Of a DNA stretch of 64,000 bases, positions 4,326 to 55,307 are shown one piece after another; the stretch's first letter is position 1; every line of letters begins with the position of its first letter. The notes under the pieces are model-generated. The model was not told the origin of the DNA. It saw only the letters and a program-made list of their open reading frames with translations, and searched no databases. The stretch comes from Patescibacteria group bacterium (GTDB lineage: Bacteria > Patescibacteriota > Minisyncoccia > Phycocordibacterales > Phycocordibacteraceae): assembly GCA_018970465.1 (NCBI GenBank), contig JAGWWI010000002.1, positions 4,517 to 68,516 on the forward strand, in the 5' to 3' direction. The position numbers and the translations under genes are program-made.

Positions 4326-4695
4326 AACACTCGAAGTGTCGGCATACGAAACGCATAGGATAAGAATGTGTGAACAAATGATTGTGCTATACAGAGTTCC
4401 GCACGAGAGACTGGACATATTAGTACTCCTCGACTCCGCGCCTTACGGCGCTTCCATCTAGAGCCTATCAACGTGGTCATCTCCCACGAGTCTCATAACG
4501 ATTCCTAATCTTGGAGCACGTTTCCCGCTTATATGCTTTCAGCGGTTATCGCAACCCGACATAGCTACCCAGCGGTGCCCTTGGCAGGACAGCTGGTAGA
4601 CCAGAGGTCAGTTCATCCCGGTCCTCTCGTACTAGGGACGACCCTCCTCAAGAATCAACGCCTGTAGTAGATAGGAGACCAACCTGTCTCACGCA

Positions 4696-5003
4696 TCTAC
4701 GTTTGCTCGCATTACTGCGAGGATCGGACTGTAACACCACCCGATCTGGGTGACCAACATTCAGTCTCTAGAGGCGCCGAGATTTTTACTTCTCCGCTTC
4801 CTTCGGTGTTGCCCTCTCGTACACAACGAGTTCGGGTTCCACCGATATCAGTTGATTTGCTAACGTACGTATTCCTACGTACGACCGCCGTGAGTATGTC
4901 TTCGCACACTGCGTCTCCACGCAGCTAACAATTGCCTCGTGGATTCAGACCGTTCAATCACCGACACTCTGTCAGTTGCTGAACGGTCTGAACCCAGCTC
5001 GCG
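4696..5003 (-). mobile_element. ORF-less intron-like insertion (about 308 nt) in 23S domain V, near E. coli positions ~2593-2596
   Basis: Exon sequence 'gaccaacctgtctcacg' (4679-4695) and 'gtctgaacccagctcgcgtacc' (from about 5004) are contiguous in a normal 23S (GGGUUUAGAACGUCGUGAGACAG). About 308 nt lies between them. The insert ends in G before the 3' exon, as in group I introns. Class not established. Confidence 0.55.
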
Positions 5004-5714
5004 TACCTTTTTAATTGGCGAACAGCCAAACGCTTGGGAGCTTCTCCACCCCCGCGCTAAGGTGAGCCGACATCGAGGTGCCGAACTCCGCCGTCGCTAT
5101 GGACGCTTGGGCGGAACTAGCCTGTTATCCCCAGGGTAACTTTTATCCGTTGAGCTTCCTCCGCGTCTAAGGCGGAAGGTCGGATCACTATGCTCTGCTT
5201 TCGCATCTGCTCGGGATGTCCCCCTTGCAGTTAAGCCAGCTTATGCCATTACACTATCGGCACGGTTTCCATTCGCGCCTAGCTGACCTTAATAGGCTCC
5301 TCCGTTACTTTTTAGGAGGATAGCGCCCCACCAAAACTACCTGCCACGCACGGTCCCGATAGGGTTCCGCCCTACCGGTTAGGCACTGCCGGATGTAAGA
5401 GTGGTATTTCACTGACGAGTCCACGGCACCCAAGAGCGCCGCTTCAACCTCTCCCACCTATGCTACGCATACATCCCGCAGGGCCAATACGAAGCTGTAG
5501 TAAAGCTCCTGGGGTCTTTTCGTCTAACTACAGGTATCCGGCATCTTCACCGGAAGTGCATTTTCACCGAGCGAATCCTCGAGACAGCTGCCCAGTCATT
5601 ACGCCATTCGTGCACGTCGGAATTTACCCGACAAGGAATTGCGCTCAGGTATTCCTCGAACCTGGACCATATCTTCACCGCCGAAACGGGCACGACGTAT
5701 GGCCTCTCATGTGA

Positions 5715-6610
5715 GTCGTGTTTAGGATTAACCGGTACATTGCTATACCGGAAGGTAGCTTCGAATAGCGCAACCTATTTACCGACTATAATGGGTCCCA
5801 ATCCTCCCACGTTCGACTGTCGTCGAGCGTGAGACCTTAGGACGATTCACTTTGTTACTCTGCCGCGAAGCGGCAACTCTCACGATCGCCCGTGAGTTCG
5901 GACTATATCATCTGAGCTCTCGCCCAGTTCAGCGTGTAGTCTCTGAGGATTCCCAACCCCATCGCCAACGATATGCTCGATGGTATATTTGCGCTTCCTG
6001 CCGCGACCTTCGTTCAGAAGTTCGCGAAGTTGCGCTATCTCTTCGAGCCCTTGCCGTGTCAGATGCTTCTTCTGAAACACCTGGTGCGCGATGTCCTTGA
6101 AGAGTTTGAAGTTCTTCTTGGATTTAGCGGACAAGAATCCGAACCGCTCGAAGAACGGAATGATCCGCTCTTCTATGGATCGCGGATTCGCCACGACGTA
6201 GTACCAGACGCCATCGCGTCGCGCTTGCAGTCGACCGCACCCAAGGTGCTGCTTCATAAGCGCGAGCACGGTCTTGTCGCGTTGCGCGACATTGAACGTT
6301 AGTACCGTCTGCCACCCGATCGTATGATCAGGCCGCTGACGGAAGGAAACGTTGAAGCTCCCTTCTCCGTCTACGAATCCTGCGATGTACCACCCTATAT
6401 GGGGCGGTATGTCGTTGATGTTTTTCATGTTGGGTCTTTCCTGCGGATTGTCTGCACTCGCGCATTGTTACAGGGAGTCTTTCATCCCGAGTAGCGCGGA
6501 GTCCTAACCAGAGTTTCCCGCATTTAGCTGAATTTTATAACTACGATCGTCCATAGTTATCGCCGACATTCACCGGGGCATATACAGTCCAGCACATACC
6601 CGAAAGCATG
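5715..6610 (-). mobile_element. Intron (probable group I) in 23S domain IV, near E. coli positions ~1860-1880, carrying a LAGLIDADG ORF
   Basis: Exon matches resume at about 5617-5710 ('...acctggaccatatcttcaccgccgaaacgggcac' = region around E. coli 1880-1905) and at about 6615-6660 ('cttaacctaccggcatcggtcaggcgtcac' = around 1830-1850). About 0.9 kb of non-rRNA sequence lies between. Boundaries are approximate. Confidence 0.65.
5880..6428 (-). CDS. LAGLIDADG homing endonuclease (single-motif, I-CreI-like), intron-encoded
   Basis: 182 aa. 'IGWYIAGFVDGEGSFNVSF' is a LAGLIDADG motif. Same strand as, and inside, the 23S gene. Confidence 0.85.
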   Translation of the reverse strand: MKNINDIPPHIGWYIAGFVDGEGSFNVSFRQRPDHTIGWQTVLTFNVAQRDKTVLALMKQHLGCGRLQARRDGVWYYVVANPRSIEERIIPFFERFGFLSAKSKKNFKLFKDIAHQVFQKKHLTRQGLEEIAQLRELLNEGRGRKRKYTIEHIVGDGVGNPQRLHAELGESSDDIVRTHGRS

Positions 6611-8687
6611 TACCGCCCGTACTTAACCTACCGGCATCGGTCAGGCGTCACCCCCTATACTTCCTCTTACGAGTTCGCAGGGAGCTGTGTTTTTGGTAAA
6701 CAGTTGCCAGGCAATCTTTCGCTGCGGCCCCGCCGCCCTTGCGGGCGAAGGGGCAGGCCTTATCGCGAACTTACGGCCGCTTGTTTGCCGAGTTCCTTGA
6801 GGATCTCTCACTCGTTCGTCTTGGGCTACTCGCCCTGACCACCTGTGTCGGTTTGCGGTACGGTCGTTCGCAAGTTGAATGCTAGGAGGTTTTCTTGGAA
6901 CCGCGCTCGCTGCCCTCTCTCCCCCCGTAGGAGGAAATTGCGTCGCGGCTCGCGCTAGTGCGTGGCGGATTTGCCTACCACGCGCGCTCACCGCGCCGAC
7001 CCAAATCCAATAATGGGCGGCAGCTACAGCAGTCCGTCACTCCTTCGCCTTACGAACGGTCACGGAATATTGACCGTGTGTCCATCGGGTGCGGCTCTCG
7101 CCATCCCCTTAGGCCCGACTAACCCGGAGATGATCACCATAGCTCCGGAAACCTTGGTCTTTCGACGTGCGGGGTTCTCACCCGCATTGTGGTTACTTGT
7201 ACCTGCATTCTCACTTCTGAACGCTCCACCGCGGGTCACCCCTGCGGCTTCATCGCGAACAGAACGCTCTCCTACCGCTTGCCGCGTACACGTACGCGGC
7301 AAACCCGCAGTTTCGGCACGACGCTTAACCCCGATCATCTTCGGCGCACGGACTCTCGACGAGTGAGCTGTTACGCTTTCTTTGAATGGTGGCTGCTTCT
7401 AAGCCAACATCCTCGCTGTCAGTGAATCCGCACTTCCTTGTGATGTACTGAGCGTCGATTTTGGGGCCTTAACTGGCGATCTAGGCTCTTCCCTTCTCGA
7501 TCGATGGAGCTTCGCCCCCACCTTCTAACTGCCGCCCGAGCAGCGGGTATTCGGAGTTTGATAGGGACCACGAGATTTCTCCCTGTTGGCCCCTTCCAGT
7601 GCTCTACCCCCCACTGCGCATATGGCGACGCCAGCCCAAAAGCTGTTTCGGAGAGAACCAGCTATTCCCAGGTTCGATTAGCTTTTCACTCCTTACCACA
7701 AGTCATCCCAACGCGTTGTACGACGAACGGGTTCGGGCCTCCAGCTGCCTTTCGGCAACCTTCACCCTGCTCATGGCAAGCTCACCTGGCTTCGGGTCGT
7801 ATCGACGCCGCAGACGCGCTATTAACGCTCGCTTTCGCTTAGCCTCCGGGGCGTAACCCCTTAGACACGCGACGTAGATACACTCGCAGGCTCATTCTTC
7901 AATAGGCACGCCGTCACCCTCCCTTGCGGGAACGGGCTCCGACCCTTTGTAAGTGCACGGTTTCAGTTCTATTTCACTCCCCTCTCGGGGTGCTTTTCAC
8001 CTTTCCCTCACGGTACTAGTTCGCTATCGGTCATAGAGCGTATGTAGCCTTACCGGTTAGTTCCGGCAGATTCATTCGAGCTATTCATGTCTCGAACTAC
8101 TCAAGAATATGGACAAAAGAGTCGTCAGCATTTCGCCTACGGGGCCATTACCCTCTGGGGCGCTGCTTCCCAGCAGCTTCGGCTATGATGACGATTGGTA
8201 ACTCTTCTCTAGCAAGCTAGACGTCCATACCTTACAACCCCGTCCTCCGAAGAGTACGGTTTGGGCTTCTCCCTTTTCGCTCGCCGCTACTTGGGGAATG
8301 ACGTGGAATGGGTCTCCATACGCACAAGCATGTGCGCACGGAGACACATTCCTATTGTTCTCTTTTCCTCCGGGTACTGAGATGTTTCACTTCCCCGGGT
8401 TCGCTTCTCGTGGACATGACTCCACGGATCTCTACTAGAAGTAGAGGGGTTTCCCCATTCGGACATCTCCGGATCACAGGCTAATAGCCGCCTCCCCGAA
8501 GCTTATCGCAGGCTAATCACGTCCTTCATCGCCGCTCTAGGCCAAGGCATCCACCGTGCACCCTTCATGCTCCCGTACGGAAGCCTGAATACCACAATCG
8601 TTTTTGCACTTTGACCTCCCTCATTTCTGAGGGAATTTCAATTACCTTTCGTATTCGTGTATCAAAGAGCCCGTGCCCTCTAACGAA

Positions 8688-8709: not shown

Positions 8710-8850
8710 CGTTCGTCACGAACGCGTGGCCTAGCGGCCTCCCCCCGAAATCAGGTTTTTGGTGTTCGTAGACACGTAGAAGGGAGTGTACAGGAGGGGC
8801 GAAAGCGCGTCAACTAGGACCGTACTCTAGCCTTATCGGAGCCCTGGGGC

Positions 8851-9513
8851 CTATTGGACAACGATGCTTTTGGTAGCGATTACCTGATCTCCGCTCAGCA
8901 CCTTCAATACGTATGTGTTAGGGGAGAAGTAGCGATGGCTCGTAGCAACGTCCCCTTCCGTCATAACGGGAAAGGGATCGCGCGGAGATCTGTCTCCGTA
9001 ATCGACCGAGAGCGTACTGCCGCTGCCTCTGACCTCAAACCAGATGCTCTCACCCACGAGGAGAGGCGAGGATGTTGCGACGTCAATCGACGCTTCCGTG
9101 ATCCCGCCCGAAACCGTAACGGTCGCAGGAGAACCAACACCGATGCTCGGCGGCGGGATACAGTCCCCGTACGCAGGAGCCTGACACTCCCAAGCTTTGG
9201 ACCAGGTCATGCCAGCCTGAAATGTTCCAGAAATGCGATACGTGTGCCGGGCGTGTATAGAACACATGAATAAGAAACAGGTCGAAGACGCGACCGCATC
9301 GATGCTTCCGTCTCCAAAGTACGCTCGGTAGGTCCCGCCACGCGAGGCCAGCGCCAGGGTCGAGAGGCGCACCTCAAGAGGCGCGCTGCCGCGAACGGGC
9401 GTAGCAACATCCATTCGCCCCGTCCGCCACCACATGCCACCTGCGAGCGCAGCGAGCGCGAGAACGACGAGGCCGATCAGGATGAGCGAGGCGAAGCCGC
9501 GAGCAGAGCGCAT
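8851..9513 (-). CDS. Anchored or secreted hypothetical protein, tandem paralog A
   Basis: 220 aa. N-terminus 'MRSARGFASLILIGLVVLALAAL' (basic, then G-F, then about 20 hydrophobic residues). Shares this N-terminus with the next gene. Confidence 0.7.
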   Translation of the reverse strand: MRSARGFASLILIGLVVLALAALAGGMWWRTGRMDVATPVRGSAPLEVRLSTLALASRGGTYRAYFGDGSIDAVASSTCFLFMCSIHARHTYRISGTFQAGMTWSKAWECQAPAYGDCIPPPSIGVGSPATVTVSGGITEASIDVATSSPLLVGESIWFEVRGSGSTLSVDYGDRSPRDPFPVMTEGDVATSHRYFSPNTYVLKVLSGDQVIATKSIVVQ

Positions 9514-9516
9514 GAG

Positions 9517-10668
9517 TTAGTTGGTGAAGCGGAAGGATTGGATGATCGGCTCGAGCTTCGCATTTATATACGCTTGCCCGGCATCTCCGTTAACCGTTGC
9601 GTGCGCGAGTATACCGCTATATTGGAACATGAATATATCGAGCTGATAACAAAGGCCGTTCCGTACCGTCGCGTACGTGCTATTACCGACGTCTCCGTAG
9701 GGAATGCTCGTTTGCGTAAAGGCAATATCATTTATGGTAGTTGCTGCGGTGCCAAGGGTTTTGGTACAGCCGTTCTCTCCCTGCAACTTGTCCAATGGAA
9801 CGACCGATGCAAGCAAATATCCCTCGAGATTATCGGCGCCATCCACGACGTTGAAGTATGCCTCCGGAGGATTCTCGATGGTGGGCACCGAACCATACCC
9901 GGTAGTCTGCGCCGGCACGTCAGACGGATACTGGAGGCTGAACCCGTACTGCGCGTTAGCGTAGGTCTCGAGGCCGCTCACTACTGGACCCGTTCCGGCT
10001 GCCTTGCATGTAGAATCATACGTGCGAGTCGAGCCGTCGACCGAGACGGACAGGTTCGAGGACGACAACTTCGCGGTAGCCGGATCGGCTCCGAGAATGA
10101 CGGAACCGTTGCAATAGACGTTGTGCCTGTCCTTGGCATAAGGCGAGAAGTCGAGGTTCGGATTGAGCTCGACGAAGCTCGCGGCGTCGCCACTGACGAC
10201 AGGCGAAGAATCGACGAACGCGGAGTTTTCGTCCGCACTGAAGGAAAACTTCGTGATCCCGGTATCGTTACGGAAGAAAAGGACGGGCCCTGGTTTGGCG
10301 TACCACAGGAGAGAAAAGGTCGCCGGATCGGCACCCGCTATGACTACGCCGCCTCGATATACGTGACTCTTGTCTTTCCCGAAGCACAGGCCATAGATTG
10401 TGAGGTCTTGAAAGGTCGCCGCATCCGCCCCGGCGACCTTCTGGTATGCGCCGGAGCGGGGTTGAGTATCCATATAAATGGCGTCGCCATTTTTGTAGTA
10501 ACAACCGCTATCGGGCCCTACGCGCGCCGGGTCCACCGCAACGAAAGACCCGGCAGGCTCTCCGTTATTTCTGGCCGCCCGCCATGCCCTGCCCCCTGCG
10601 AATGCAACGACGACTAACACGGCCAGGCCGATCAGGACGAGCGAAGCGAACCCGCGAGCAGAGCGCAT
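9517..10668 (-). CDS. Anchored or secreted hypothetical protein, tandem paralog B
   Basis: 383 aa. N-terminus 'MRSARGFASLVLIGLAVLVVVAF'. C-terminal module '...YANAQYGFSLQYPSD...LEPIIQSFRFTN', shared with paralog C. Confidence 0.75.
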   Translation of the reverse strand: MRSARGFASLVLIGLAVLVVVAFAGGRAWRAARNNGEPAGSFVAVDPARVGPDSGCYYKNGDAIYMDTQPRSGAYQKVAGADAATFQDLTIYGLCFGKDKSHVYRGGVVIAGADPATFSLLWYAKPGPVLFFRNDTGITKFSFSADENSAFVDSSPVVSGDAASFVELNPNLDFSPYAKDRHNVYCNGSVILGADPATAKLSSSNLSVSVDGSTRTYDSTCKAAGTGPVVSGLETYANAQYGFSLQYPSDVPAQTTGYGSVPTIENPPEAYFNVVDGADNLEGYLLASVVPLDKLQGENGCTKTLGTAATTINDIAFTQTSIPYGDVGNSTYATVRNGLCYQLDIFMFQYSGILAHATVNGDAGQAYINAKLEPIIQSFRFTN

Positions 10669-10671
10669 GAG

Positions 10672-11688
10672 TTAGTTGGTGAAGCGGAAGGACTGGGCGA
10701 TCTGGTCAAGCTTGCCGAGAAGTACGGCTTCGGTGGCAGCCGACCAGCGTGGGTCAGTGCAACCACTATTTACGCATGCGCTCGGGAAACTGGTCAGGGC
10801 GATATCGTAACAATATCCGTTATGAACGGTTTTATATTCGCGCATGATGCCCTCCGCACTCACGCCTGCCTCATATCTGCTCTCGTCGAACTTGTTGAAG
10901 GTCATGCCGCCGATAGTCACCTGCGGCGTGCCGACGGGCCCTCCCAGACATTCGCCGGGTCCTGATTCGACCGTAACCGTTAAGTACCCCTCGGTTTGCA
11001 CTTGGTCCGTTCGGAGCTGGACAGAGACTACCGGATCGATGGCGAAAGGTTTGGAGGCGAAGGCCGAGGTGGCGAGCAGCGCGTCGGGTGGATACTCGAA
11101 GCTGAATCCGTACTGCGCGTTGGTATAGGTCTGCGTCTTTGTGGCACCTGCGACCGTGAGCGTTGCGCTCGTCTCTGTGTTATTAGGCCCGAACACATTG
11201 AGCGGATATGAGCCAGGCGGAAGCGTCCTGAAGTACGGACCGTCTACGAAAGAGACGGACCATCGCGCACCAGCCTGCACACTCGTGTCCGCGCTACCCG
11301 CGAGCTCGGTGCCACCTACGCTTTTGATCTGCACGTTGATGTCTCCCGACACCAAGGCCGTCCCGCTTATGGTTGGGTTCCCTGATGCTGACGTAAGCGA
11401 ACTCTGGTCGATAGCCACGCTCGGTCCTGCCGCTGATGATGGCGCCGTAGTCGTCTGATTGTTTGGAGCCGTTGTTGCGGTTGCGTTGGAGGTACTGGTC
11501 GCAACAGCGTCGGTATGGGTTGGCAGAGTAGCTTGTCGGGTGCCGTACCACCCCGCCCCAATCGCGGCGAGCGCGAGAACGACGAGGCCGATCACGATAA
11601 GCGAGGCGAAGCCCTGTGCGGGGATGCGGGACAGGCCGCGAGCGAGGGTATGCATATGCATCGATGATAGCACCCGAGCAAGCTTCAT
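10672..11688 (-). CDS. Anchored or secreted hypothetical protein, tandem paralog C
   Basis: 338 aa. '...IPAQGFASLIVIGLVVLALAAI', a Thr-rich linker 'TSTSNATATTAPNNQTTTAPSS', and C-terminal '...YTNAQYGFSFEYPPD...LDQIAQSFRFTN'. The start may be one of the internal Met residues (MHMHTL...). Confidence 0.7.
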   Translation of the reverse strand: MKLARVLSSMHMHTLARGLSRIPAQGFASLIVIGLVVLALAAIGAGWYGTRQATLPTHTDAVATSTSNATATTAPNNQTTTAPSSAAGPSVAIDQSSLTSASGNPTISGTALVSGDINVQIKSVGGTELAGSADTSVQAGARWSVSFVDGPYFRTLPPGSYPLNVFGPNNTETSATLTVAGATKTQTYTNAQYGFSFEYPPDALLATSAFASKPFAIDPVVSVQLRTDQVQTEGYLTVTVESGPGECLGGPVGTPQVTIGGMTFNKFDESRYEAGVSAEGIMREYKTVHNGYCYDIALTSFPSACVNSGCTDPRWSAATEAVLLGKLDQIAQSFRFTN

Positions 11689-11853
11689 AAGTCCCCTGGT
11701 TTAAGTCCTGTGTGTTTCGCGATCCCCTCCGCTTTCGCGCGAGCTCCCTGCTTCGTCTTGCCGTAAGCAAGTGCTCCGGGCATGCCTGCGACCTCCGCAA
11801 TCCAGAGCCCATCAACCTCGCGGTCGAAAACAACTTCCGCTGCCCGCACAGCC

Positions 11854-12078
11854 TTACGCATTGCTACGCGTGAGAGTGAAGGGGAGGGCTATGGGCTTGC
11901 GCGTATCACGCAGGCGCCGAGAAGCGTTGAGGAGCGTGAAGCCGCGCACGTGCTTAGTTCTTGGCGCGACCCGCAACAGCACGTCATTGCCCGCCTCCAC
12001 GGTTTGATCTGAAGCGCGGGGAGCGCCCTCAGAAAAGTAGAAGACATCTGCTTCTTTATCGTAAAAATAGTTGACCAT
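11854..12078 (-). CDS. DUF2283-like small protein (candidate antitoxin)
   Basis: 'MVNYFYDKEADVFYFSEGAPR...VRGFTLLNASRRL' matches the YDxExDxLYI pattern of DUF2283. ORF track 11854..12168. The start was trimmed to the internal Met to avoid overlap with the upstream gene. Confidence 0.55.
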   Translation of the reverse strand: MVNYFYDKEADVFYFSEGAPRASDQTVEAGNDVLLRVAPRTKHVRGFTLLNASRRLRDTRKPIALPFTLTRSNA

Positions 12079-12091
12079 GTTTGTATCCAGA

Positions 12092-12370
12092 TTAGAGGCT
12101 TTTAGGCTTCTTCGCAACATAGGCAGTGAGGACGAAGGGATTTCGGCCAGTTTTGAGTACAACCGCAAGGTACTTTCTTGAACGCGGGAGCAATCCGTAA
12201 CAGATGACCACTGTCTGATCGCTGACAGACCGGGTAATCACTTCGGGCTCTGCAAGCACGGATGCGAAATGCTTGAGGTATCGACTAACATCCGGATGGA
12301 AGGCCAGGATGTGGGCCTTCCGCTCCTCCGTGAACATGACGGCCCCGAACGGCGAGCTGAACCGTTGCAT
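12092..12370 (-). CDS. DUF4258-like small protein (candidate toxin)
   Basis: 92 aa, immediately upstream of the DUF2283-like gene on the same strand. Family assignment is from pattern memory only ('...YLAVVLKTGRNPFVLTAYVAKKP'). Confidence 0.45.
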   Translation of the reverse strand: MQRFSSPFGAVMFTEERKAHILAFHPDVSRYLKHFASVLAEPEVITRSVSDQTVVICYGLLPRSRKYLAVVLKTGRNPFVLTAYVAKKPKSL

Positions 12371-20912: not shown

Positions 20913-21965
20913 ATGCCCGCATTCAAGAAGAAGGTCCCCAAAGCAGCGAAGGAAGTGGCCGCGGCCGCCGGCGCAGACAAGGACGCCAAGCAGCGCTCGA
21001 TCGAGGCTGCGCTCAAGGAGATCCGCACCAAGTTCGGCGACGAGGCGATCACGACCTATGGCAGCGGCACCCCGCAGAAGATCCCGGCGATCCCGACCGG
21101 CTCGGAGGGGCTCGACGCCGCCCTCGGGATCGGCGGCCTGCCGCGCGGGCGCATCATCGAGATCTTCGGGCCGGAATCTTCGGGCAAGACGACGCTCGCC
21201 CTGCACGTCATCGCGGAGGCGCAGAAGTCGGGCGGCATCGCCGCTTTCGTCGACGCCGAACACGCCCTCGACCCGGAGTATGCGCGGCGCATCGGCGTCA
21301 AGCTCCCCGAGCTCCTCATCAGCCAGCCGGACACGGGCGAGCAGGCCCTCGATATCGTCGAGAGCCTGGTGCGGAGCGGGAACGTGGACGTGATCGTCGT
21401 CGACTCGGTCGCGGCCTTGACCCCGAAGGATGAGATCGAAGGCGAGATGGGCCAGCAGCACGTCGGCAAGCAGGCGCGGCTCATGTCGCAGGCCTTGCGC
21501 AAGCTGACCGCGATCGTCGCGCGCTCGAAGACGATCGTCATATTCATCAACCAGATCCGCATGCAGATCGGCGTCATGTTCGGCAATCCAGAGACGACGC
21601 CGGGCGGCAAAGCGCTCAAGTTCTACACCTCGGTGCGCCTCGACATCCGCCGCATCGCGAGCATCAAGAAGGGCGAGGAGGTCGTGGGTGGTCGCGTCCG
21701 CGTGAAAGTGGTCAAGAACAAGGTCGCCGCGCCCTTCAAGACGACCGAGTTCGACCTCCTCTACAACGAGGGCATCAGCCGCGAGGGCGAATTGATCGCG
21801 CTCGGCGAGAAGTTCGGCCTTCTCACCAAGAGCGGCGCCTCCTACAAGATGGGCGAGGAGAAGCTCGCGACCGGCTACGACGCCACCCGCACCTACCTCC
21901 GCGAGCACAAGGACGTCGCCAAAGAGCTCTTGAAGCAGATCCGGGTGAAGCTTGCGGACGGGTGA
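20913..21965 (+). CDS. recA: Recombinase RecA
   Basis: '[41 protein letters not shown]...[12 protein letters not shown]...[15 protein letters not shown]'. Confidence 0.97.
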
Positions 21966-22001: not shown

Positions 22002-22826
22002 ATGTACTGTAGCAACTGCGGAAGAAAAAATGACCCTGACGCGAATTTTTGTGAAAAATGCGGCGCGGCTCTTACCAAGGAATCCGTTCCTGTCCTCCGA
22101 GAGTCTGCTCCGGTTACGAGCACCGCTCCCTCGACTCAATCGGAACCTGTCGCCGCACCTCCGACGGGAAAAGGTGTCATTAAGTGCGGCAATTGCGGGT
22201 ACATCGGCCCAGGCGAACCGGCACGGAGCCTGTGGGCGAAAATTCTTGCGTGGATATGCGTGATCTTTGCTCCGCTCATCACTATCCTCTACTTCGTCGC
22301 GACCCACAAATATCGCTGTCCGAAGTGCCACTCCACGTTTCTAGGAATACGAAACAAGAACGGGGAATTCATCCAAGGCCAGAACGGCGTTAGCAGAGCC
22401 GTTACCATAATCATTCTCGTGTTCGTCGGATTATTTGTTATCGGTGTTCTGGCTGCAGTGGTGCTGGCTTCGCTCAACACAGCCCGTGCGAAAAGCAGGG
22501 ACGCCGCTATCGAATCTCGTCTGGACAGTATCCGTGCGGAAGCGGAAGTGTACTATGGGGGCGCCGGCGATAACAGCTACGGGAACGGGACCGACTCTTG
22601 CGCGGACGGCATGTTTGCCGCCGATGCGACCATCGCAAGCGAGTTGCAAGACATTTCGAGCCTCAATCCAAACGGCGAGATGTCGTGCGCCGTTTCAACC
22701 GACGGGAGCGCCTATGCTCTACAAGCGCAGCTCACCTCTGACTCGGGCACGTATTGGTGTGTCGACTCGGCTGGCCTATCTAAAGAAGAGACTTCTTCGT
22801 TGGGGGCGGGCACACGTTGTCCGTAG
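22002..22826 (+). CDS. Zinc-ribbon, TM, then type IV pilin-like ectodomain protein
   Basis: N-terminal 'MYCSNCGRKNDPDANFCEKCGA' (double Cys pair). A second Cys pair 'KCGNCG...RCPKCHS' flanks a TM helix. Then 'VIGVLAAVVLASLNTARAKSRDAAIESRLDSIRAEAEVYYGG' resembles a mature pilin alpha-helix, and a C-terminal region carries 4 Cys. Region of lower G+C. Confidence 0.65.
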   Translation: MYCSNCGRKNDPDANFCEKCGAALTKESVPVLRESAPVTSTAPSTQSEPVAAPPTGKGVIKCGNCGYIGPGEPARSLWAKILAWICVIFAPLITILYFVATHKYRCPKCHSTFLGIRNKNGEFIQGQNGVSRAVTIIILVFVGLFVIGVLAAVVLASLNTARAKSRDAAIESRLDSIRAEAEVYYGGAGDNSYGNGTDSCADGMFAADATIASELQDISSLNPNGEMSCAVSTDGSAYALQAQLTSDSGTYWCVDSAGLSKEETSSLGAGTRCP

Positions 22827-28352: not shown

Positions 28353-29201
28353 CTAGCCGCGCGGCGACGCGGCCAGCCCGAAGAGGCGCGTGGCGTTCGC
28401 GACCGTAGCTTGGCGGACGGTCTCGAGGGGCTCGTTGCGGATCTCGGCGAGCTTCGCGACGACGTCTTCGACGGCCAGAGGGTCGTTGCGCGCCCCGCGT
28501 CCGCGCGAGGTCGGCGGGACATAGGGCGCGTCGGTCTCGGCGAGGAGGGACGCGAGCGGCGCGGCGCCGATGGCGGCGTCGTACTCGCGAGCGAAGGTGA
28601 CGACCGCCGTGTAGGAGACGGTCAAGCCGAGCGCGACCAAGGCGCGCATCTCCTCCTCGCCCCCGACGAAGAAGTGGATATCGCCGCGGAGGTTCGGATA
28701 CTGCTCCTTCTCCTCCGTGAGGATCGCGATGAGGTCGTGATATGCGTCGCGCGTCTTCTTCGACGGCCGCGCGTGGATGATCAAGGCCTTATCGAGCTCG
28801 GCGGCAAGCGCGATCTGGGAGCGCAGTAGGGTTTTCTGCTTCTCCTTCACCTCCTCGTTCACCTCTTCAGGACGAAAATAGTCCAAGCCGCACTCCCCTA
28901 TCGCAACGACCTTTCCGCCGGAGGCGGATCCGCCTCCGGCGGACGCGCTCGCGGCGAGCGCGCGATATGCCGCCGGGTCGAAGGCCTCCTCTGATTCATG
29001 ATTGGGGTGGAGACCGATCGCCGCGTAGAGATGCTCGTGGCGCTCGGCGAGCGCGACCGCCGCCTGCGAGCTCACGTAGTCGCAGCCGACGACCACCCCG
29101 GCGACCCCGCGCTCCTCCATCCGCGCAATCACCTCCTCGCGATCCTCAGCAAAGGCCGGGAACTGCAGGTGGCAGTGCGCGTCGAAATACTTGGTCGTCA
29201 T
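28353..29201 (-). CDS. tatD: TatD-family metal-dependent hydrolase/DNase carrying a GGGSASGG insert
   Basis: 'KYFDAHCHLQF', 'IGLHPNH', 'VVAIGECGLDYF', 'LIIHAR', 'GDIHFFVGG', 'LLAETDAPYVPP'. Confidence 0.85.
   Translation of the reverse strand: MTTKYFDAHCHLQFPAFAEDREEVIARMEERGVAGVVVGCDYVSSQAAVALAERHEHLYAAIGLHPNHESEEAFDPAAYRALAASASAGGGSASGGKVVAIGECGLDYFRPEEVNEEVKEKQKTLLRSQIALAAELDKALIIHARPSKKTRDAYHDLIAILTEEKEQYPNLRGDIHFFVGGEEEMRALVALGLTVSYTAVVTFAREYDAAIGAAPLASLLAETDAPYVPPTSRGRGARNDPLAVEDVVAKLAEIRNEPLETVRQATVANATRLFGLAASPRG
28915..28942. repeat. 28-bp perfect palindrome ccgccggaggcggatccgcctccggcgg (copy 1, inside tatD)
   Basis: Self-complementary and centred on GGATCC. Translated in frame (minus) as GGGSASGG within TatD. 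Confidence 0.9.
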
Positions 29202-29740
29202 ACTGACGCGAGCTGGTCGAAGCGCGCTTTCTTGAAGCGATAGAAACCGATTGTTCTGATCGAGCCGTCGGCGAGCGTAACGAGCATGGTGTCGACGCGA
29301 TCGAACAATACCGGAGGGAAGTCACGATGGTTCTGTGTGGCAAGGAACAGTTCTGCCACGGTTGATGCGGTCCGCGCATATTTGCTCAACTGCGCAGCGA
29401 TCAACGTATCTGCAACGCTTGAACTCTTATTGTCTGCATTCAGATATATGCGGGCGATTGTAAGCGCCCGATCAAAAATGTCCTTATCGGGAGCAAGAAC
29501 GAGATGGTCCGTGCCGCACAATGCCGTGAGGAACTCCTCTGCCGCCCGAAGCTCTTCCGGACCGCGCTTCAGACCACGAAGAAATTCGAGCCGAATGGTA
29601 CTCTCAATAACCGGAACGATTTCGAGCCGCCGTAATTCCGCATAGAGCACACTAAACTCTTCAGGGAACTTGGACGAATCGATGAGAACGTTCGTATCGA
29701 GTAATACAAAGCTATGCTCTGGTATCGACAGGCGCTCCAT
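29198..29740 (-). CDS. PIN-domain ribonuclease (VapC-like toxin)
   Basis: 'MERLSIPEHSFVLLDTNVLIDSS...ADTLIAAQL...LATQNHRDF', with acidic residues at PIN positions. ORF track start 29794 is a non-ATG codon; the ATG at 29740 is preferred. Region of lower G+C. Confidence 0.75.
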   Translation of the reverse strand: MERLSIPEHSFVLLDTNVLIDSSKFPEEFSVLYAELRRLEIVPVIESTIRLEFLRGLKRGPEELRAAEEFLTALCGTDHLVLAPDKDIFDRALTIARIYLNADNKSSSVADTLIAAQLSKYARTASTVAELFLATQNHRDFPPVLFDRVDTMLVTLADGSIRTIGFYRFKKARFDQLASV

Positions 29741-29849
29741 TGACTCTCTCGTCGCGCTCGCGTTCCCGAATGCCTTCGCCAACTCGTTTTGCAAGCGCGA
29801 TTATTCGCTCGTTCCACGAGTAGGTTGATTTGGCTGCGTGAGTGCTCAT
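29712..29849 (-). CDS. Candidate small antitoxin upstream of, and overlapping, the PIN gene
   Basis: 45-aa ORF 'MSTHAAKSTYSWNERIIALAKRVGEGIRERERDERVNGAPVDTRA', below the ORF-track cutoff. A TATACT is about 10 nt upstream. No family recognised. Confidence 0.3.
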   Translation of the reverse strand: MSTHAAKSTYSWNERIIALAKRVGEGIRERERDERVNGAPVDTRA

Positions 29850-31405: not shown

Positions 31406-31975
31406 TTATACCTTTTCGAACTGAACGCGTGATGAATTGTACTTGACGACGCTGCCGACACTGAATGCGGCAGCTCGCAACGCAACCTCTTCCGCTAGAG
31501 AAAGATGCTTGGCGGCAGGATCAGAACCGCAGCTGTCGTGCCGATCGCAAAGGTCGGATGTGAAATCCAGGCCTTGCTGAACAGAAAAGTCGGCACTTGA
31601 AAATGGGTCGCTGTTATCGGCTCCGAAGCACATATGTAGCCGAAGGGGCTTCCTGTTATAGGCAATTGGATTGCCATGCGGACAAAGGGCCTCAATTTCC
31701 GTCGAGACCGACTGGCAGAAGGTCCCGCGCTGCATCCCGCCGAACTTTCTCTCGTCCATCTGGATCTCACCCCAGTTGAGGTTGTGCCTGCGCACCACCC
31801 TGCCGAGGAGAGTCCCGCGTAAATGCCTGAGATCCATATGTTCATGAATATGAACACGGCCACAGACATAGCAGTACGCATTTGCATTTTCAAGTCTGCC
31901 GACTTGAAAGTCACAGCAACGGGAAAGAACACGATCTAACATGGGAGGTCTTCCTTTTCTAGTGACGTCCGTCAC
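31406..31975 (-). CDS. Hypothetical protein with HNH-nuclease-like Cys/His spacing
   Basis: 'CYVCGRVHIHEHMDLRH...RRHNLNWGE...EALCPHGN' resembles C-x2-C...H-x-H...N...LC-x-H of HNH folds. G+C is lower than the flanks. Confidence 0.45.
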   Translation of the reverse strand: MTDVTRKGRPPMLDRVLSRCCDFQVGRLENANAYCYVCGRVHIHEHMDLRHLRGTLLGRVVRRHNLNWGEIQMDERKFGGMQRGTFCQSVSTEIEALCPHGNPIAYNRKPLRLHMCFGADNSDPFSSADFSVQQGLDFTSDLCDRHDSCGSDPAAKHLSLAEEVALRAAAFSVGSVVKYNSSRVQFEKV

Positions 31976-42448: not shown

Positions 42449-43639
42449 CTATCGGGCTCGCGCCTTTTTCATCGTATGCCTGAAGCTCTCATCGAAGAGC
42501 TTGTAATAATCCGCGTAGACATACTTCTGGCCGTAATCGGCCTTACCGAGCGGCTCTAGGATCCGCAACTCTTCGAGACGGTCGATGACCTTATAGGCAC
42601 CAGGCGCGGAGAATCTCGTCCACTCACGTATCTCCGCGACGCCTATGATCGGCTGGCCGAATAGTCGATGCACGACATTCAGCGTGGACTCTGCCGATTT
42701 CTTGCCGAGCTTCTGCACCTTTGCGGTATCGCGCTCTCGCAGGGCGGTGATCGCGGCACATGTCTCGATAGCGGATTCGGCGACCTCCGCAACACCCTCG
42801 AGGAAGAACCCGAGCCAGCCTTCGATGTCCCCGTCTTCGTCGTGGTACTCGTTCAGTTTCTGATAGTAGAGCTTCTGGTGCTGCTTGAAGTAACTCGCGA
42901 GATAGAGCACTGGATGTTCAAGCAGGCCCGCATGATGGATATAGAGGGATACGAGCATACGGCCGGTACGGCCATTCCCGTCCGTGAACGGATGGATGGT
43001 CTCGAATTGCGCATGAATGAATCCTGCCTTGATGAGCGAGGGGTAGTCATCTTTCGCATGAATGAACCTCTCAAGATCGCTAAGCGCCGCACGCATGTCC
43101 GATGGGGCCGGCGGGACGAAGAACGCGTCATGCGGCGTCTTTCCTCCGATCCAGTTCTGCGAACGGCGGAACTCGCCCGGATACGCGTGCTGCGTAGCGC
43201 GAGCGCCCGCCATGAGCTTCTCGTGTATCTCGCGAATGAGTCGGAGCGAAATGGGGAGTGTCTTCGAACGCGCGAGGCCGTAGTTCGCCGCGTGGACGTA
43301 GTGAAGAATATCGTCGACATCCGGCGGGAGCTGAGATTTCTCTTCAGTAACGGGCGCCGCAATCACGTCTTGAAGCGTCGCTTGCGTGCCCTCGATCTGA
43401 CTAGAGAACACTGCGTCCTTGTTGACGAACATCTGCAAGAAATAATCCTTGTCCGGCAAGAGGCGCATGGTGCCATCGAGCTTCCCCACGAGCCGTATCG
43501 CCTCCTCATGCTTCTTGTAGAGCTTAGGCGTAATGGCGAAGCCGCCCGGCGGAGGGAATGGGTAAGGTGTGAAGCTCCGCCAGCCTTCCGGCTGTTTGAC
43601 GAGGCGTCCTATATTCGGCCGTTGGTTGCTCGGGTTCAT
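42449..43639 (-). CDS. Fic/Doc-family protein (AMPylator-type) with a C-terminal wHTH
   Basis: Fic motif 'HPFTDGNGRTGRML'. 396 aa. Region of lower G+C. Antisense ORF 42668..43942 rejected. Confidence 0.85.
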   Translation of the reverse strand: MNPSNQRPNIGRLVKQPEGWRSFTPYPFPPPGGFAITPKLYKKHEEAIRLVGKLDGTMRLLPDKDYFLQMFVNKDAVFSSQIEGTQATLQDVIAAPVTEEKSQLPPDVDDILHYVHAANYGLARSKTLPISLRLIREIHEKLMAGARATQHAYPGEFRRSQNWIGGKTPHDAFFVPPAPSDMRAALSDLERFIHAKDDYPSLIKAGFIHAQFETIHPFTDGNGRTGRMLVSLYIHHAGLLEHPVLYLASYFKQHQKLYYQKLNEYHDEDGDIEGWLGFFLEGVAEVAESAIETCAAITALRERDTAKVQKLGKKSAESTLNVVHRLFGQPIIGVAEIREWTRFSAPGAYKVIDRLEELRILEPLGKADYGQKYVYADYYKLFDESFRHTMKKARAR

Positions 43640-47568: not shown

Positions 47569-48432
47569 TCACCCAGAGGGCGAGGGAGCGTCGAGGAGTA
47601 CTCTGATGATCTGAACGCCGTTCGCTTGGAACGCCGGTGCGCCATCGACTAGTGAATACCCCTCTGAGTAGAAGAGGTGCTTGATGCCCGTCTCTGCCCA
47701 TTCATAGGCGCACGGTGGACACGGGAAGGTCTGTACATATAGATCACAACCCTCAGTACAGATGCCAGCCCTCAACGCGGCAGCTGCCACCGACCGTTCA
47801 GCATGAGCAGAGGCGGAGAGTTCTATCTGCTCTCCCGGCCCGAACTGGCTGCGAGGATCGCCGTATACGTAGCAGCTTTGTTCGGCCGGGACGTGGCGGT
47901 TGTATGCCCGGACCAAGACAGTGCCGTCGCGCACGAGAAGCGCGCCGATCTGCCGCCACCAGTCGGGACTCCGACCGCCCTCGTAGATAGCTGCCCGCAT
48001 GAGCCGACGATCAAGCTCGTCGGCAGATACGACCTCTTCCCCATCCGGACGGCGCCCGACGGCCACGCTGTCCTTATACCAGCGCAGACGCCAACGCCCG
48101 TCGAAGACAACCGGAACGTCGGCGAGATACATCTCCGCAACCGTGCGAGACACATCCTCATCCGGCATGACGATACGGTACGCTCGGGCGACTTCCCACA
48201 GTTCGCCGCGCGATACCACCCTCACCGTACGGAAGATTGCGAGAGCGGCGATCATCCGCACCGCATCCGCCGGACGATTGCCAGGCAGATGCTTCGTGAG
48301 CGACGAGAACTCGGCGATCAGCTCGTCGTCGAATACGTAGAGGCATGCGCCTTCGTACTGACGAAAGAACTGCAGATACCCTTCGTGCGGTGAAGCGACA
48401 TAGGCGACGACAGCGGTATCAGGCGAGTTCAC
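47569..48432 (-). CDS. dCMP/cytidine-deaminase-fold protein with an unrecognised N-terminal domain of about 150 aa
   Basis: C-terminal 'SASAHAERSVAAAALRAGI...YVQTFPCPPCAYEWAETGIKHLFY' (H-A-E...P-C-x-x-C zinc site). The N-terminal half has no recognisable motif. Confidence 0.7.
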   Translation of the reverse strand: MNSPDTAVVAYVASPHEGYLQFFRQYEGACLYVFDDELIAEFSSLTKHLPGNRPADAVRMIAALAIFRTVRVVSRGELWEVARAYRIVMPDEDVSRTVAEMYLADVPVVFDGRWRLRWYKDSVAVGRRPDGEEVVSADELDRRLMRAAIYEGGRSPDWWRQIGALLVRDGTVLVRAYNRHVPAEQSCYVYGDPRSQFGPGEQIELSASAHAERSVAAAALRAGICTEGCDLYVQTFPCPPCAYEWAETGIKHLFYSEGYSLVDGAPAFQANGVQIIRVLLDAPSPSG

Positions 48433-49102
48433 GTACTGCCTCCTCGAGCGCGACGCTCAGTTTCTTGCGGACATTATCGATTACTTGGAGACCCCCTTCT
48501 TGGGCCAACTTGCGCAGCCGCGCTGTTGTCCCGGTCGGGGACTGCGGCGGGAGCCTGATCAGATGCCCACAGTGTTGTCGCATCTCCTCAAGGTCGGGAT
48601 TATCGCCCGTCGATTCAGAAATGATGCGCACATCGGGGCGAAGCTTGCGGTTGAAGACCTCCGACTCGTTCAGCACAGTGATGAGGTCGACCGCACGGTG
48701 ATAGCTGATGACCTGACAGCGCTCCTCTTCAGGGACAACGGGCCTGTTCAGGTCATCTTCTTTCCTCTTACGGGTGAGCGCATCGGAGTCGACGCCCACA
48801 ACCATGACCACTTGGTCGGCGCGTTCCGGACCAACGCAGTGCTCGATAGCGTCGAGCTTGCCTCTGGCAAGGTAGGCACCGTGGCCACGATGATAGAGAT
48901 CCCACACTCCCTCTGTGTACGCGATAGCGCATCCCATCGAGCGGAGAATGCGGGCCATCTCTAGTAATTCGTCATGGTCGAGGACGACCTGCTCTGGGTA
49001 TACCGCAGAGCCTTTCAAGATGCGCTGGATGCGGCGCATAGTGTCAGCAGGCAACTGCCCAGTGAGCTGGGCTGGGAGAACGTCATTCATAGTGCACCTC
49101 AA
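48419..49102 (-). CDS. Cytidylyltransferase-like (HxGH nucleotidyltransferase superfamily) protein
   Basis: 'AYTEGVWDLYHRGHGAYL...VVMVVGVDSDALTRKRKEDDLNRPVVPEEERCQVISYHRAVDLITVL' parallels TagD/RfaE-II-type cytidylyltransferases. Confidence 0.55.
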   Translation of the reverse strand: MRCTMNDVLPAQLTGQLPADTMRRIQRILKGSAVYPEQVVLDHDELLEMARILRSMGCAIAYTEGVWDLYHRGHGAYLARGKLDAIEHCVGPERADQVVMVVGVDSDALTRKRKEDDLNRPVVPEEERCQVISYHRAVDLITVLNESEVFNRKLRPDVRIISESTGDNPDLEEMRQHCGHLIRLPPQSPTGTTARLRKLAQEGGLQVIDNVRKKLSVALEEAVRELA

Positions 49103-49199
49103 GGTTCAATTGGACTCCCGCCAGCCTAGCACGGCCCTGCAAGGTTTGACTTTTGCGATCAGACGATACAGAATCCGCTCGGATTTCGGAGGACACGCG

Positions 49200-49739
49200 A
49201 TGACTGAATATGCGGATGACGACCTTGAGTTCTCGATCGTGGTCGCTGCGACCGAAGGGGGCGTAATCGGCAACCATGGTCGAATGCCCTGGCGTATCCC
49301 GAGCGACCTCAGGCGCTTCCGGGACATCACGACCGAGATCGGCGTGGTCGTCATGGGCCGGAAGACGTACGCAACTATCTTGCAGACGCTGGGGCATCCA
49401 CTTCAAGATCGGAAGAGCATCGTGCTCTCGCGAAAAGCGACTGGACGGACCGAAACTCTCGCGTTCGTCTCGGACTTCAAGGGAGCTTGCCAGGAGGCGC
49501 GTCGGCTCGGCGGCCGCGCTGCGATCATCGGAGGTGGAGAAATTTATCGACTCTTCCTTCCGCATGCGCTGCGCGTCCATATGACGACCGTATATATGGA
49601 CGTGTCCGGAGACACCACCTTCCCGACCCTAACCGGCCAGTGGCGGTGCGCCGAATGGGAAAGCGCGGCAAGACGGGACGTGCGGGATGAATTCCTTTCG
49701 TCCTATCAGGTCTATGAGCGCGTCAGCGTTCAACACTAA
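49200..49739 (+). CDS. folA: Dihydrofolate reductase
   Basis: 'EFSIVVAATEGGVIGNHGRMPWRIPSDLRRFRDITTEIGVVVMGRKTYATI...IGGGEIYRLFLP'. ORF track start 48915; Met-96 was used. Confidence 0.85.
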   Translation: MTEYADDDLEFSIVVAATEGGVIGNHGRMPWRIPSDLRRFRDITTEIGVVVMGRKTYATILQTLGHPLQDRKSIVLSRKATGRTETLAFVSDFKGACQEARRLGGRAAIIGGGEIYRLFLPHALRVHMTTVYMDVSGDTTFPTLTGQWRCAEWESAARRDVRDEFLSSYQVYERVSVQH

Positions 49740-53840: not shown

Positions 53841-54503
53841 ATGACTGATCGAAATAAGGTCTTCTTCATCGCCGGGATCGTGGTCGTCTCGCTCGCGATC
53901 GTGATCGGCGCGGCCGTCTTGCTCGCGAATCGGAGCGCCGCGCCTGGCTTCACCGCGACGACCGTCTCGGCCGTCACCGCGAGCGACCACGCGCGCGGCG
54001 ACGCCTCCTCGACCGTCTCCGTGATCGAGTACGGCGACTACGAGTGCCCGGCCTGCGGCGCCTACGAGCCCCTCGTCGAACAGCTCGCCAAGGAGTACGG
54101 CGATCGCGTCAACTTCGTCTTCCGCAACTTCCCGCTCGCGGAGATCCACCAGAACGCGATGGCGGGCGCCGAGGCGGCGGAGGCCGCCGCGCGCGCGGGC
54201 AAGTTCTGGGAGATGCACGACCTCCTCTACGCCAAGCAAAACGAATGGAGCGTCGCCTCGGGCGCCGCGGTCATGCAAGACCTCAACGGCTACGCGAAGT
54301 CGCTCGGCCTCGACGTCGCGCAGTTCGACGCGGACATGCAGTCGCCGGCCGTCGCCGCGAAGATCCAGGCCGATATCGCCTCGGGGAATGCTGCCGAGGT
54401 GAACCATACGCCCACCTTCTTTATCAATCTGAAGCAGATCCCGAATCCGAATAGCTATGCCGCCTTCAAATCCGCTATCGACAGCGCCCTTGCCGGGCAC
54501 TAA
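53841..54503 (+). CDS. DsbA-family thiol:disulfide oxidoreductase (membrane-anchored)
   Basis: TM anchor, 'VSVIEYGDYECPACGAYEP' with the CPAC active site, and 'HTPTFFING'. Confidence 0.85.
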   Translation: MTDRNKVFFIAGIVVVSLAIVIGAAVLLANRSAAPGFTATTVSAVTASDHARGDASSTVSVIEYGDYECPACGAYEPLVEQLAKEYGDRVNFVFRNFPLAEIHQNAMAGAEAAEAAARAGKFWEMHDLLYAKQNEWSVASGAAVMQDLNGYAKSLGLDVAQFDADMQSPAVAAKIQADIASGNAAEVNHTPTFFINLKQIPNPNSYAAFKSAIDSALAGH

Positions 54504-54945
54504 GCCGGCACACAGAGCGCCCTTGTGGTGGGCCGCGGCGATCGCGCTCGCAGGCTTCGCCGACGCCGCGTACCTCACGGTCGACCATTACATCACGCTC
54601 CCCCTGCCCTGCACGATCCTCCACGGCTGCGAGAAGGTCCTCACGAGCCCCTGGTCTATGGTGGGCCCGATCCCGCTCGCGGCCTTCGGCGTCGCCTTCT
54701 ACCTCTTCGCGCTCTTCGCGGCGCTCTACCTCGCGACCGCGCCCGCGCTCTCGCGCCTCTTGGCGCGTGCCTTCTTCGGCCTCACCTTGATCGGCCTCCT
54801 CTTCTCGGTCGCCTTCGAGTCGATCCAGGCCTTCATCATCCGCGCGCTCTGCATGTACTGCGCCGGCTCCGCCCTCGCCACCCTGCTCCTGTTTATCTGC
54901 GGAATGTTCGTACTAAGGCGTAGCGGCCACGAATTCGCAGCCTAG
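54457..54945 (+). CDS. Vitamin K epoxide reductase (VKOR) family protein, DsbB-like partner of DsbA; start uncertain
   Basis: 'YITLPLPCTILHGCEKVLTSPWS' and 'ALCMYCAGSA' (the two VKOR Cys pairs), about 4 TM helices. The 5' end overlaps dsbA in another frame, so the start is probably internal or non-ATG. Confidence 0.7.
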   Translation: MPPSNPLSTAPLPGTKPAHRAPLWWAAAIALAGFADAAYLTVDHYITLPLPCTILHGCEKVLTSPWSMVGPIPLAAFGVAFYLFALFAALYLATAPALSRLLARAFFGLTLIGLLFSVAFESIQAFIIRALCMYCAGSALATLLLFICGMFVLRRSGHEFAA

Positions 54946-55299: not shown

Positions 55300-55307
55300 A
55301 TCTTCAG

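Follow-up and report, generated by a model that had tools for sequence, protein, structure and literature searches.

The 64-kb stretch of DNA analyzed here (hereafter the window; 63% GC) carries a tandem array of three minus-strand genes, numbered 1, 2, and 3 as in Table 1, which is best explained as an accessory operon of membrane-anchored, modular surface proteins whose ends have been homogenized by gene conversion, a reading to which we assign a probability of about 0.6. The three-gene layout described in an earlier sequence-only reading of this DNA, with spacers of 3 nt, was borne out. According to our interpretation, the array would be a probably translationally coupled operon of Paceibacteria-like Patescibacteria, each product of which would be exported via the Sec pathway and retained in the cytoplasmic membrane through an uncleaved signal-anchor at its N-terminus, composed of a short basic leader, Gly-Phe, and ~21 uncharged residues ending in GG and an aromatic residue. 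The ectodomains would be displayed outside the cell, that of gene 1 consisting of two PKD-like segments, that of gene 2 of a DKNYY region and a PsbP/Mog1-fold domain, and that of gene 3 of a Ser/Thr-rich stalk, an uncharacterized middle region, and a PsbP/Mog1-fold domain, and their likely role on the cell surface would be in adhesion or the binding of ligands. The genes would have been put together by domain fusion from old paralogs and would not be recent whole-gene duplicates, and their conserved ends (the 3' ends encoding ...QSFRFTN and the anchor-coding 5' ends) would later have been homogenized by short-tract gene conversion, giving rise to the 41-nt exact repeat at the gene junctions as well as to the mosaic structure at the 5' end of gene 1. 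As Patescibacteria live attached to other microbes, surface proteins of this kind are likely points of contact with the host. As a case of modular surface proteins remodeled through domain fusion and gene conversion, the locus is ordinary, and the more useful by-product of the analysis is the recurrent Gly-Phe anchor motif, which is uncharacterized and widespread in a PsbP-fold family of ~1300 clusters.

Domain architecture of the three proteins

All three proteins are alike over ~35 N-terminal residues only (60-66% identity by BLASTP). The description of the genes as encoding three paralogous proteins holds for this shared segment and fails for the proteins as a whole, since in the same comparison the similarity of gene 1 to genes 2 and 3 is confined to it. 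The identical MRSARGFASL start of genes 1 and 2 is present as described, and so is the NAQYGFS(L/F)(Q/E)YP...QSFRFTN sequence common to genes 2 and 3. The latter belongs to a C-terminal domain of ~155 residues that these two proteins share, yet the two modules are only 33% identical (BLASTP). The domain of gene 3 is closer to domains from other organisms, with which it shares 48% identity, than to that of gene 2, which indicates that the two modules are old paralogs; the closest relative of the gene 2 domain, P0020, is 40% identical to it.

A profile search with the C-terminal module against 1.84 billion proteins (E<=1e-3) yielded a family of 1308 representative clusters. The module of gene 3 was modeled with AlphaFold2 on an alignment of 45 family clusters, as the earlier reading had recommended, and the model is confident, with a predicted local distance difference test (pLDDT) score of 90. 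Foldseek matched it to CyanoP, PsbP (1v2b), BT_1490, Tsi3, LpqN, Mtc28, and Mog1 in the PDB, with E values of 1e-4 to 1e-2 and template modeling (TM) scores of 0.5-0.6, the best match being CyanoP 2lnj (E 9.5e-5, TM 0.57). The modeled fold of the C-terminal modules of genes 2 and 3 is thus predicted to be the PsbP/Mog1 fold, an alpha-beta-alpha sandwich that is common among extracytoplasmic proteins. The Pfam profile PsbP_2 (PF18933) scored only 17.7 and 13.2 bits against the two modules, compared with a cutoff of 27, and the weak match covers ~30 residues corresponding to the N-terminal YxNxxYGFSxxYP strands. The module therefore shares its fold with the known PsbP/Mog1-fold domains (CyanoP/PsbP, BT_1490, Tsi3, the mycobacterial LpqN/Mtc28, DcrB, and PF18933) but belongs to a distinct family of ~1300 clusters, with conserved Cys residues, a QSFRFT C-terminus, and a score below the Pfam cutoff. 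Going by the few named contigs, the family is seemingly found mainly in Paceibacteria, and the closest relatives of the common module come from metagenome-assembled genomes (MAGs) of Candidatus Paceibacterota and Nomurabacteria.

Several lines of evidence place this module outside the cell. Its homologs are found interchangeably behind the KGF-type anchor described below, a plain transmembrane anchor, or a Sec signal peptide, and several of them bear classical cleavable Sec signals (LLASPLLVSAQT; P0003, P0010, P0037, P0041, P0044, P0051, and P0064). Cys residues are near-invariant in the family, and two adjacent genes at 53841-54945 on the plus strand encode a thioredoxin of the DsbA-like type (100 bits) and a homolog of VKOR (83 bits), a predicted extracytoplasmic disulfide-forming pair that is relevant to Cys-containing ectodomains.

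Gene 2 appears to have arisen by domain fusion. Its anchor and DKNYY part are 57% identical to their closest relative, P0154, a protein from a farmland metagenome that ends directly after the DKNYY region, so that P0154 amounts to the anchor and DKNYY part without the PsbP-like module. The locus of P0154 (L043, positions 387-1154 of an ENA farmland contig) encodes an RGF-type anchor like that of gene 2 (MDKFRGFISLSLVV...GGGWWY), and P0008 is named a DKNYY domain-containing protein by NCBI. The neighbors of P0154 on this contig are an open reading frame (ORF) for an ABC-2 permease-like protein and one whose product, judged by eye, combines peptidoglycan-binding-like repeats in tandem with a C-terminal part resembling glycosyl hydrolases; there is no array. 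In the full-length model of gene 2 (overall pLDDT 68), a helix at residues 5-34 is followed by coil and then the beta structure of the DKNYY region; the C-terminal half is of low confidence, and a fold search of the PDB with this model was uninformative.

The ectodomain of gene 1 is of another kind. Residues 44-103, beginning 17 residues past the anchor, match the Pfam PKD domain (PF00801) at 22.7 bits, just below the cutoff of 23.5, and a second PKD-like motif, GD...HxY...Y.L.V, can be recognized by eye at residues 168-210. A database search found no homologs of gene 1 besides itself, and no sequence relatives of gene 1 or gene 3 were found in the PDB. In gene 3, the middle region at residues ~89-180 is uncharacterized.

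Table 1. Coordinates of the array genes, their domains, and the associated repeats and promoter-like site (positions within the window)
Feature	Position	Strand	Description
Gene 1 (220 aa)	8851-9513	-	MRSAR leader, anchor, two PKD-like beta-sandwich segments
Gene 1 anchor-coding segment	9448-9498	-	Gene 3-like (94%); 28-nt exact block at 9452-9479
Gene 2 (383 aa)	9517-10668	-	MRSAR leader, anchor, DKNYY repeats, predicted PsbP/Mog1-fold domain of a subtype other than that of gene 3
Gene 2 DKNYY region, residues 57-214	10027-10500	-	Pfam PF13644, 60.2 bits versus cutoff of 25
Gene 2 C-terminal PsbP-like domain, residues 231-383	9520-9978	-	33% identity to the domain of gene 3
Gene 3 (338 aa; NCBI 327 aa from Met12)	10672-11688	-	Leader, GFASL... 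anchor, Ser/Thr/Ala/Asn-rich stalk, middle region, predicted PsbP/Mog1-fold domain
Gene 3 anchor-coding segment (GFASLIVIGLVVLALAAIGAG)	11551-11613	-	11563-11613 is 94% identical to gene 1 9448-9498
Gene 3 C-terminal domain, predicted PsbP/Mog1 fold, residues 183-338	10675-11142	-	Subtype with FPSACVNSGC loop; AlphaFold2 pLDDT 90.2
Junction repeat, copy A	9497-9537	-	41 nt, exact; last 6 codons of gene 2 (SFRFTN), TAA, CTC spacer, ATG and first 5.7 codons of gene 1
Junction repeat, copy B	10652-10692	-	41 nt, exact; end of gene 3, stop, spacer, start of gene 2
Promoter-like site TTGACG-17-TACACT	8785-8813	-	For the downstream 23S-5S-tRNA-Met unit; 3' boundary of the array

A recurrent Gly-Phe anchor and the question of pilin-type signals

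The N-terminal motif of the array is not peculiar to it. Among the 150 best members of the module family, 106 have an N-terminal uncharged stretch, which begins with [KR]-G in 37; the next residue is Phe in 25 of these KGF-type members, the leader is 4-7 residues long in 30, and the stretch, of 18-28 residues (median 25), ends in GG..[YWF] in 29. Gly is the first residue in 37 of the 80 stretches preceded by Lys or Arg, compared with a Gly composition of 11% (nominal binomial p = 5e-15, with shared ancestry ignored), whereas 64 of the 106 anchored members have no such Gly. Starts of the MKNxQKGF type recur in metagenome loci, and since the Gly-Phe motif is found across the family, it is a lineage-wide feature. 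By these results, [KR]-G-F followed by ~25 uncharged residues and GG..Y constitutes a recurrent anchor of Paceibacteria, and our literature search found no paper describing it. In the deposited annotation of two further MAG contigs that carry the array (GCA_028866105.1 and GCA_028864825.1), gene 2 is begun 65 codons late (318 aa), with the loss of its anchor, gene 3 is begun at Met12 (327 aa), and gene 1 has no protein record, so the common anchors are invisible there.

The most likely reading of these N-termini is an uncleaved signal-anchor, as both the length of the uncharged stretch in the KGF-type members and the helix predicted at residues 5-34 of gene 2 suggest an anchor rather than a cleaved signal. 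Three observations weigh against it. The Gly following a basic residue is atypical of generic Sec signal-anchors in its enrichment and fits a prepilin-peptidase site, the tight leader of 4-7 residues is likewise atypical of such anchors and matches the same kind of site, and the hydrophobic stretch ends in AxA-like motifs (ALA-GG, AFA-GG) that could permit cleavage by signal peptidase I.

The first two of these observations bear on the proposal that the proteins begin with class III (prepilin-type) signals that lack Glu at +5 and are cut after the Gly by a prepilin peptidase, in which case the proteins would either remain anchored by the helix, as archaeal PibD substrates do, or serve as Glu5-less tip or minor pilus subunits with adhesin modules. 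Genes 1 and 2 do show a class III-type leader, as MRSAR-G-F places Gly at -1, Phe at +1, and Arg at -2 behind a leader of 5 residues, and comparable starts, with Phe, Ile, Val, Leu, or Ser after the Gly, are those of the 37 KGF-type members, which come from many Paceibacteria. PilM/PilN-like genes are present in the genome, clusters in which several genes have a predicted pilin signal peptide are on record for Paceibacteria (PMC9763046), and in Saccharibacteria the minor pilins PilX1 and PilX2, which are large and modular, are likewise devoid of a predicted PilD signal (PMC11623550). The likeness is incomplete, however, even within the array. The sequence-only reading had a basic residue preceding GFASL in all three proteins, which is correct for genes 1 and 2, but in gene 3 the sequence is ...RIPAQ-G-F, where Gln occupies -2 and the leader comprises 14 residues or more (25 counted from the first ATG). 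That reading was also right that the conserved Glu is missing at +5, where the residues are Ile, Val, and Ile and not the Leu/Ile it had reported, and Glu is equally absent from this position in all 37 KGF-type relatives. Neither N_methyl (PF07963) nor TIGR02532 matched any of the three proteins at E<=1, the helix of gene 2, as predicted in a model with an overall pLDDT of only 68, spans ~30 residues and leads into coil and the DKNYY structure, and there is no pilin fold among the PDB matches of this model.

Linkage to pilus genes is equally limited. Searches of the window, by regular expressions in all six frames and by Pfam profiles in 20 selected ORFs, found no PilD, PilB, PilC, or canonical pilin, and no canonical pilin is encoded in 331 kb of the relatives' loci. 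As for the pil operon reported at 60.7-63.3 kb, PilM is present (62165-63268, 88 bits) but lies 50 kb from the array, and PilN is borderline (21.5 versus 22.8 bits). In addition, most anchored family members lack the Gly, and some have classical Sec signals in its place. What survives of the pilin-like signal is the Gly at -1 and Phe at +1 after a short basic leader, which is family-wide, whereas Glu at +5, the N_methyl profile, and linkage to pil genes are all missing. We consider prepilin-type processing rather unlikely, and the pilin likeness, as judged from the N-termini, appears to be a resemblance only, with no good evidence that the proteins are pilins. A literature search for a pilin-like signal without Glu5 in Patescibacteria found nothing specific.

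The third observation would be accounted for if the N-termini were ordinary cleavable Sec signals, with signal peptidase I cutting at the AxA-like motif (ALA-GG, AFA-GG, or IGA-GW) and releasing soluble secreted proteins. In each of the three genes, the hydrophobic stretch does end with small residues at positions -3 and -1, and homologs with clear signal peptidase I signals exist. Yet the hydrophobic stretch of ~21-26 residues has the length of a transmembrane anchor, compared with 7-15 residues for the h-region of a cleaved signal, and in most KGF-type relatives the end is GGG-x-YY, with no AxA motif present, which makes release from the membrane quite improbable. We thus retain the uncleaved signal-anchor as the most likely reading for the N-termini of the array.

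Probable homogenization of the gene ends by gene conversion

The DNA across both gene junctions is duplicated exactly, as had been reported, although the repeat comprises 41 nt and the coordinates first given for it (9492-9535 and 10647-10690) are a few bases off those in Table 1. The junction 39-mer quoted at that time is exact and occurs only twice, at 9499 and 10654, and the 41-nt repeat is embedded in a longer repeat of 139 nt with 81% identity. An exact 28-nt block common to genes 1 and 3 was likewise found as described, at 9452 and 11567, within 51 nt of 94% identity. In shuffled sequences, the number of matches expected by chance was 0 for both the junction repeat and the 28-nt block.

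The codons used at identical residues are informative regarding the age of these similarities. In the C-terminal domains of genes 2 and 3, codons agree at 20 of 45 identical residues, with 18 expected by chance, and synonymous sites are saturated across all of the common regions except the junction, where all 10 degenerate codons agree, as do the stop and spacer (P~2e-5). Such synonymous identity at the junction against a background of saturation points to recent short-tract gene conversion. The 5' end of gene 1 is, furthermore, a mosaic in which patches resembling gene 2 flank one resembling gene 3. Gene 1 has the junction and the codons from -5 to -1 in common with gene 2, over codons 0-16 it agrees with gene 3 in every codon but one (differences at +4, +6, and +15), and codons 18-24 again resemble gene 2; wherever genes 1 and 2 differ within codons 0-16, gene 1 agrees with gene 3, synonymous sites included. 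Patchy identity of this sort is the hallmark of short-tract gene conversion acting on gene ends that are conserved. It is also what is generally seen in gene conversion among tandem paralogs of surface proteins, where identity is patchy even at synonymous sites and similarity is incongruent along the gene, but the array differs from the surface systems that rely on conversion in that donor pseudogene cassettes and a dedicated recombinase are absent and no variation within a population has been observed. Recent conversion is inseparable from nucleotide-level selection on the junction, for instance for reinitiation, and this weighs against our interpretation of the repeat; translational coupling, if it occurs, could add constraint on the same sequence.

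Two other explanations were considered and rejected. Recent tandem duplication of whole genes is at odds with C-terminal domains that are old paralogs and with a gene 1 that lacks similarity past the anchor, and a structured RNA at the junction is not indicated, given z-scores of -1.3 and +1.6, an unpaired core, and no match to Rfam at the junctions.

No sign of ongoing variation

The sequence-only reading went further and took the exact repeats flanking variable middles as a mark of cassette shuffling, recommending a search for recombinant arrangements at the junctions. We made the comparison at the level of assemblies and unitigs, using two further MAG contigs (L017, 15.2 kb, GCA_028866105.1; L018, 8.6 kb, GCA_028864825.1) and two Logan unitigs (L001 and L019). 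Both contigs are colinear with the window and 100% identical to it within the array, with 0 differences, and the unitigs are identical to the window as well, so that no recombinant arrangement was found in the three MAG assemblies and two unitigs and nothing points to ongoing shuffling. Each unitig ends precisely at the position where a de Bruijn graph with k=31 must break at a 41-nt repeat, which confirms that the repeat is real in the reads and is uninformative on variants. An assembly artefact was rejected on the same grounds, given that three assemblies agree and the unitig ends are those expected from a real repeat. The exact 41-mer was not found in metagenome contigs of the Joint Genome Institute (JGI), no recombinase, silent cassettes, or further copies of the repeat are present in the window, and no 3-nt-spaced arrays of this kind were seen at the relatives' loci, most of whose contigs are short. 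Programmed systems of surface variation, such as silent-cassette conversion, shufflons, and diversity-generating retroelements, are not indicated either, as there are no donor cassettes and no recombinase or reverse transcriptase beside the array genes. The recombination proposal thus stands insofar as the mosaic and the junction identity record past exchange among the three genes, whereas ongoing shuffling or active switching is unsupported.

A variation system based on the junction repeats themselves, in which RecA-mediated exchange between the 41-nt repeats precisely removes the 1155-bp cassette of gene 2 or multiplies it and so varies the surface repertoire of the population, would draw on direct repeats that bracket exactly one gene and its spacer, on an exchange that would leave genes 3 and 1 intact and in frame, on a recA-like gene at 20913-21965, and on the past exchange proven by the mosaic, but the invariance of the array in three assemblies, unitig breaks fully accounted for by collapse of the repeat at k=31, and the absence of a recombinase, silent cassettes, and further repeat copies from the window and of the 41-mer from the JGI contigs make it very improbable.

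Comparison with known systems

Sulfolobus sugar-binding proteins carry class III signals, are processed by PibD, and are surface proteins other than pilins. The array proteins resemble such archaeal proteins in their [KR]-G-hydrophobic N-terminus without Glu5, in the Ser/Thr-rich stalk of gene 3, in having an ectodomain, and in their presumed display on the surface of a cell with a single membrane; they differ in coming from a bacterium and in their unrelated ectodomains, and the likeness is one of sequence features. A bolder proposal builds on this parallel. The Gly-Phe N-terminus without Glu5 would be a dedicated, prepilin-peptidase-dependent display signal of Paceibacteria, used by hundreds of proteins with unrelated ectodomains as a counterpart of the archaeal PibD substrates, either tethered to the membrane once the leader is removed or as interchangeable modules at the tip of type IV pili, with the junction repeats allowing precise gain or loss of gene 2 through RecA. 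We regard this as distinctly unlikely.

Minor pilins and pseudopilins without Glu5, such as those of the GspK, PilX/PilK, and ComGG types, provide a second comparison. These proteins and the modular minor pilins PilX1 and PilX2 of Saccharibacteria, which have no predicted PilD signal (PMC11623550), have in common with the array proteins a short basic leader, Gly-Phe, a hydrophobic helix, and no Glu at +5. PilX2 and gene 2 are also alike in their large nonpilin C-terminal modules, which are beta-propeller-like in the former and of the DKNYY type in the latter. Unlike minor pilins, the array proteins have neither a match to N_methyl nor a recognizable pilin globular domain, the helix predicted for gene 2 is ~30 and not ~50 residues long, and they are encoded outside a pil locus.

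A third comparison is with the patescibacterial clusters of genes with predicted pilin signal peptides that lie beside pil genes (Kuroda et al. 2022, PMC9763046, where McLean et al. 2020 is also cited). Like the array, they are found in the reduced genomes of episymbionts and encode, in tandem, small exported proteins whose N-termini are similar; a role in host contact has been proposed for them. They differ in being adjacent to pilBCDMT and of pilin type according to SignalP, whereas the array has no pil neighbors and is bordered by a toxin-antitoxin-like pair on one side and by the 23S rRNA gene on the other. A link to the Pam pilus was rejected, as PamR (NCBIfam NF058578) scored only 19.3 bits where 300 is the cutoff, the match covering 43 residues in an Ig-like segment; Pam proteins, which have been described from Saccharimonadia and Microgenomatia, bear Sec signals (10.64898/2026.03.03.709456).

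Genomic context and other features of the window

The composition of the array is atypical. The GC content at third codon positions (GC3) of its genes is 0.66-0.67, compared with 0.85-0.93 in neighboring core genes, and the local GC is 0.56-0.60 compared with 0.64-0.73. Directly upstream, at 11854-12370 on the minus strand, a DUF2283-like ORF (20 bits) overlaps an ORF of 92 aa, forming a small toxin-antitoxin-like pair with a GC3 as low as that of the array. As both share this low GC3, 8851-12370 can be viewed as one segment, which looks like accessory DNA. A PHROG search gave no meaningful match, and a phage origin of the array was rejected. Downstream lies the 23S-5S-tRNA-Met unit with its own promoter-like site, and an MscS-like channel is encoded nearby as well.

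Within the array, a Shine-Dalgarno-like AGGGGA run is located 4 nt before the ATG of gene 3, and inspection of the sequence upstream of genes 2 and 1 revealed no Shine-Dalgarno. Given that these two genes start 3 nt past the preceding stop, translational coupling of the three genes is likely.

Several other features of the window are worth recording. The 23S rRNA gene (4400-8577, minus strand) spans 4178 nt against a model of 2925 nt, which implies an insertion of ~1.2 kb, and the insertion holds a 182-aa ORF for a LAGLIDADG-type homing endonuclease (5880-6428, minus strand; YIAGFVDGEGSF). No 16S gene is present in the 55 kb of the window upstream of the 23S rRNA gene; intron-bearing, unlinked rRNA genes are typical of bacteria of the candidate phyla radiation. 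A run of low-GC3 ORFs at 54949-57645 on the minus strand, which adjoins a tRNA-Leu (55307-55391) and includes a second LAGLIDADG-like ORF (57094-57645; LAYAVGLIATDGNL), may be a mobile island. A protein of the Fic/DOC family is encoded at 42449-43639 on the minus strand. Further patches of low GC3 are found at 22002-22826, 29198-29794, 31406-31975, and 47569-49580 (0.56-0.72, compared with 0.85-0.93 for the core), and the accessory content of the genome, as judged by composition, appears to be patchy.

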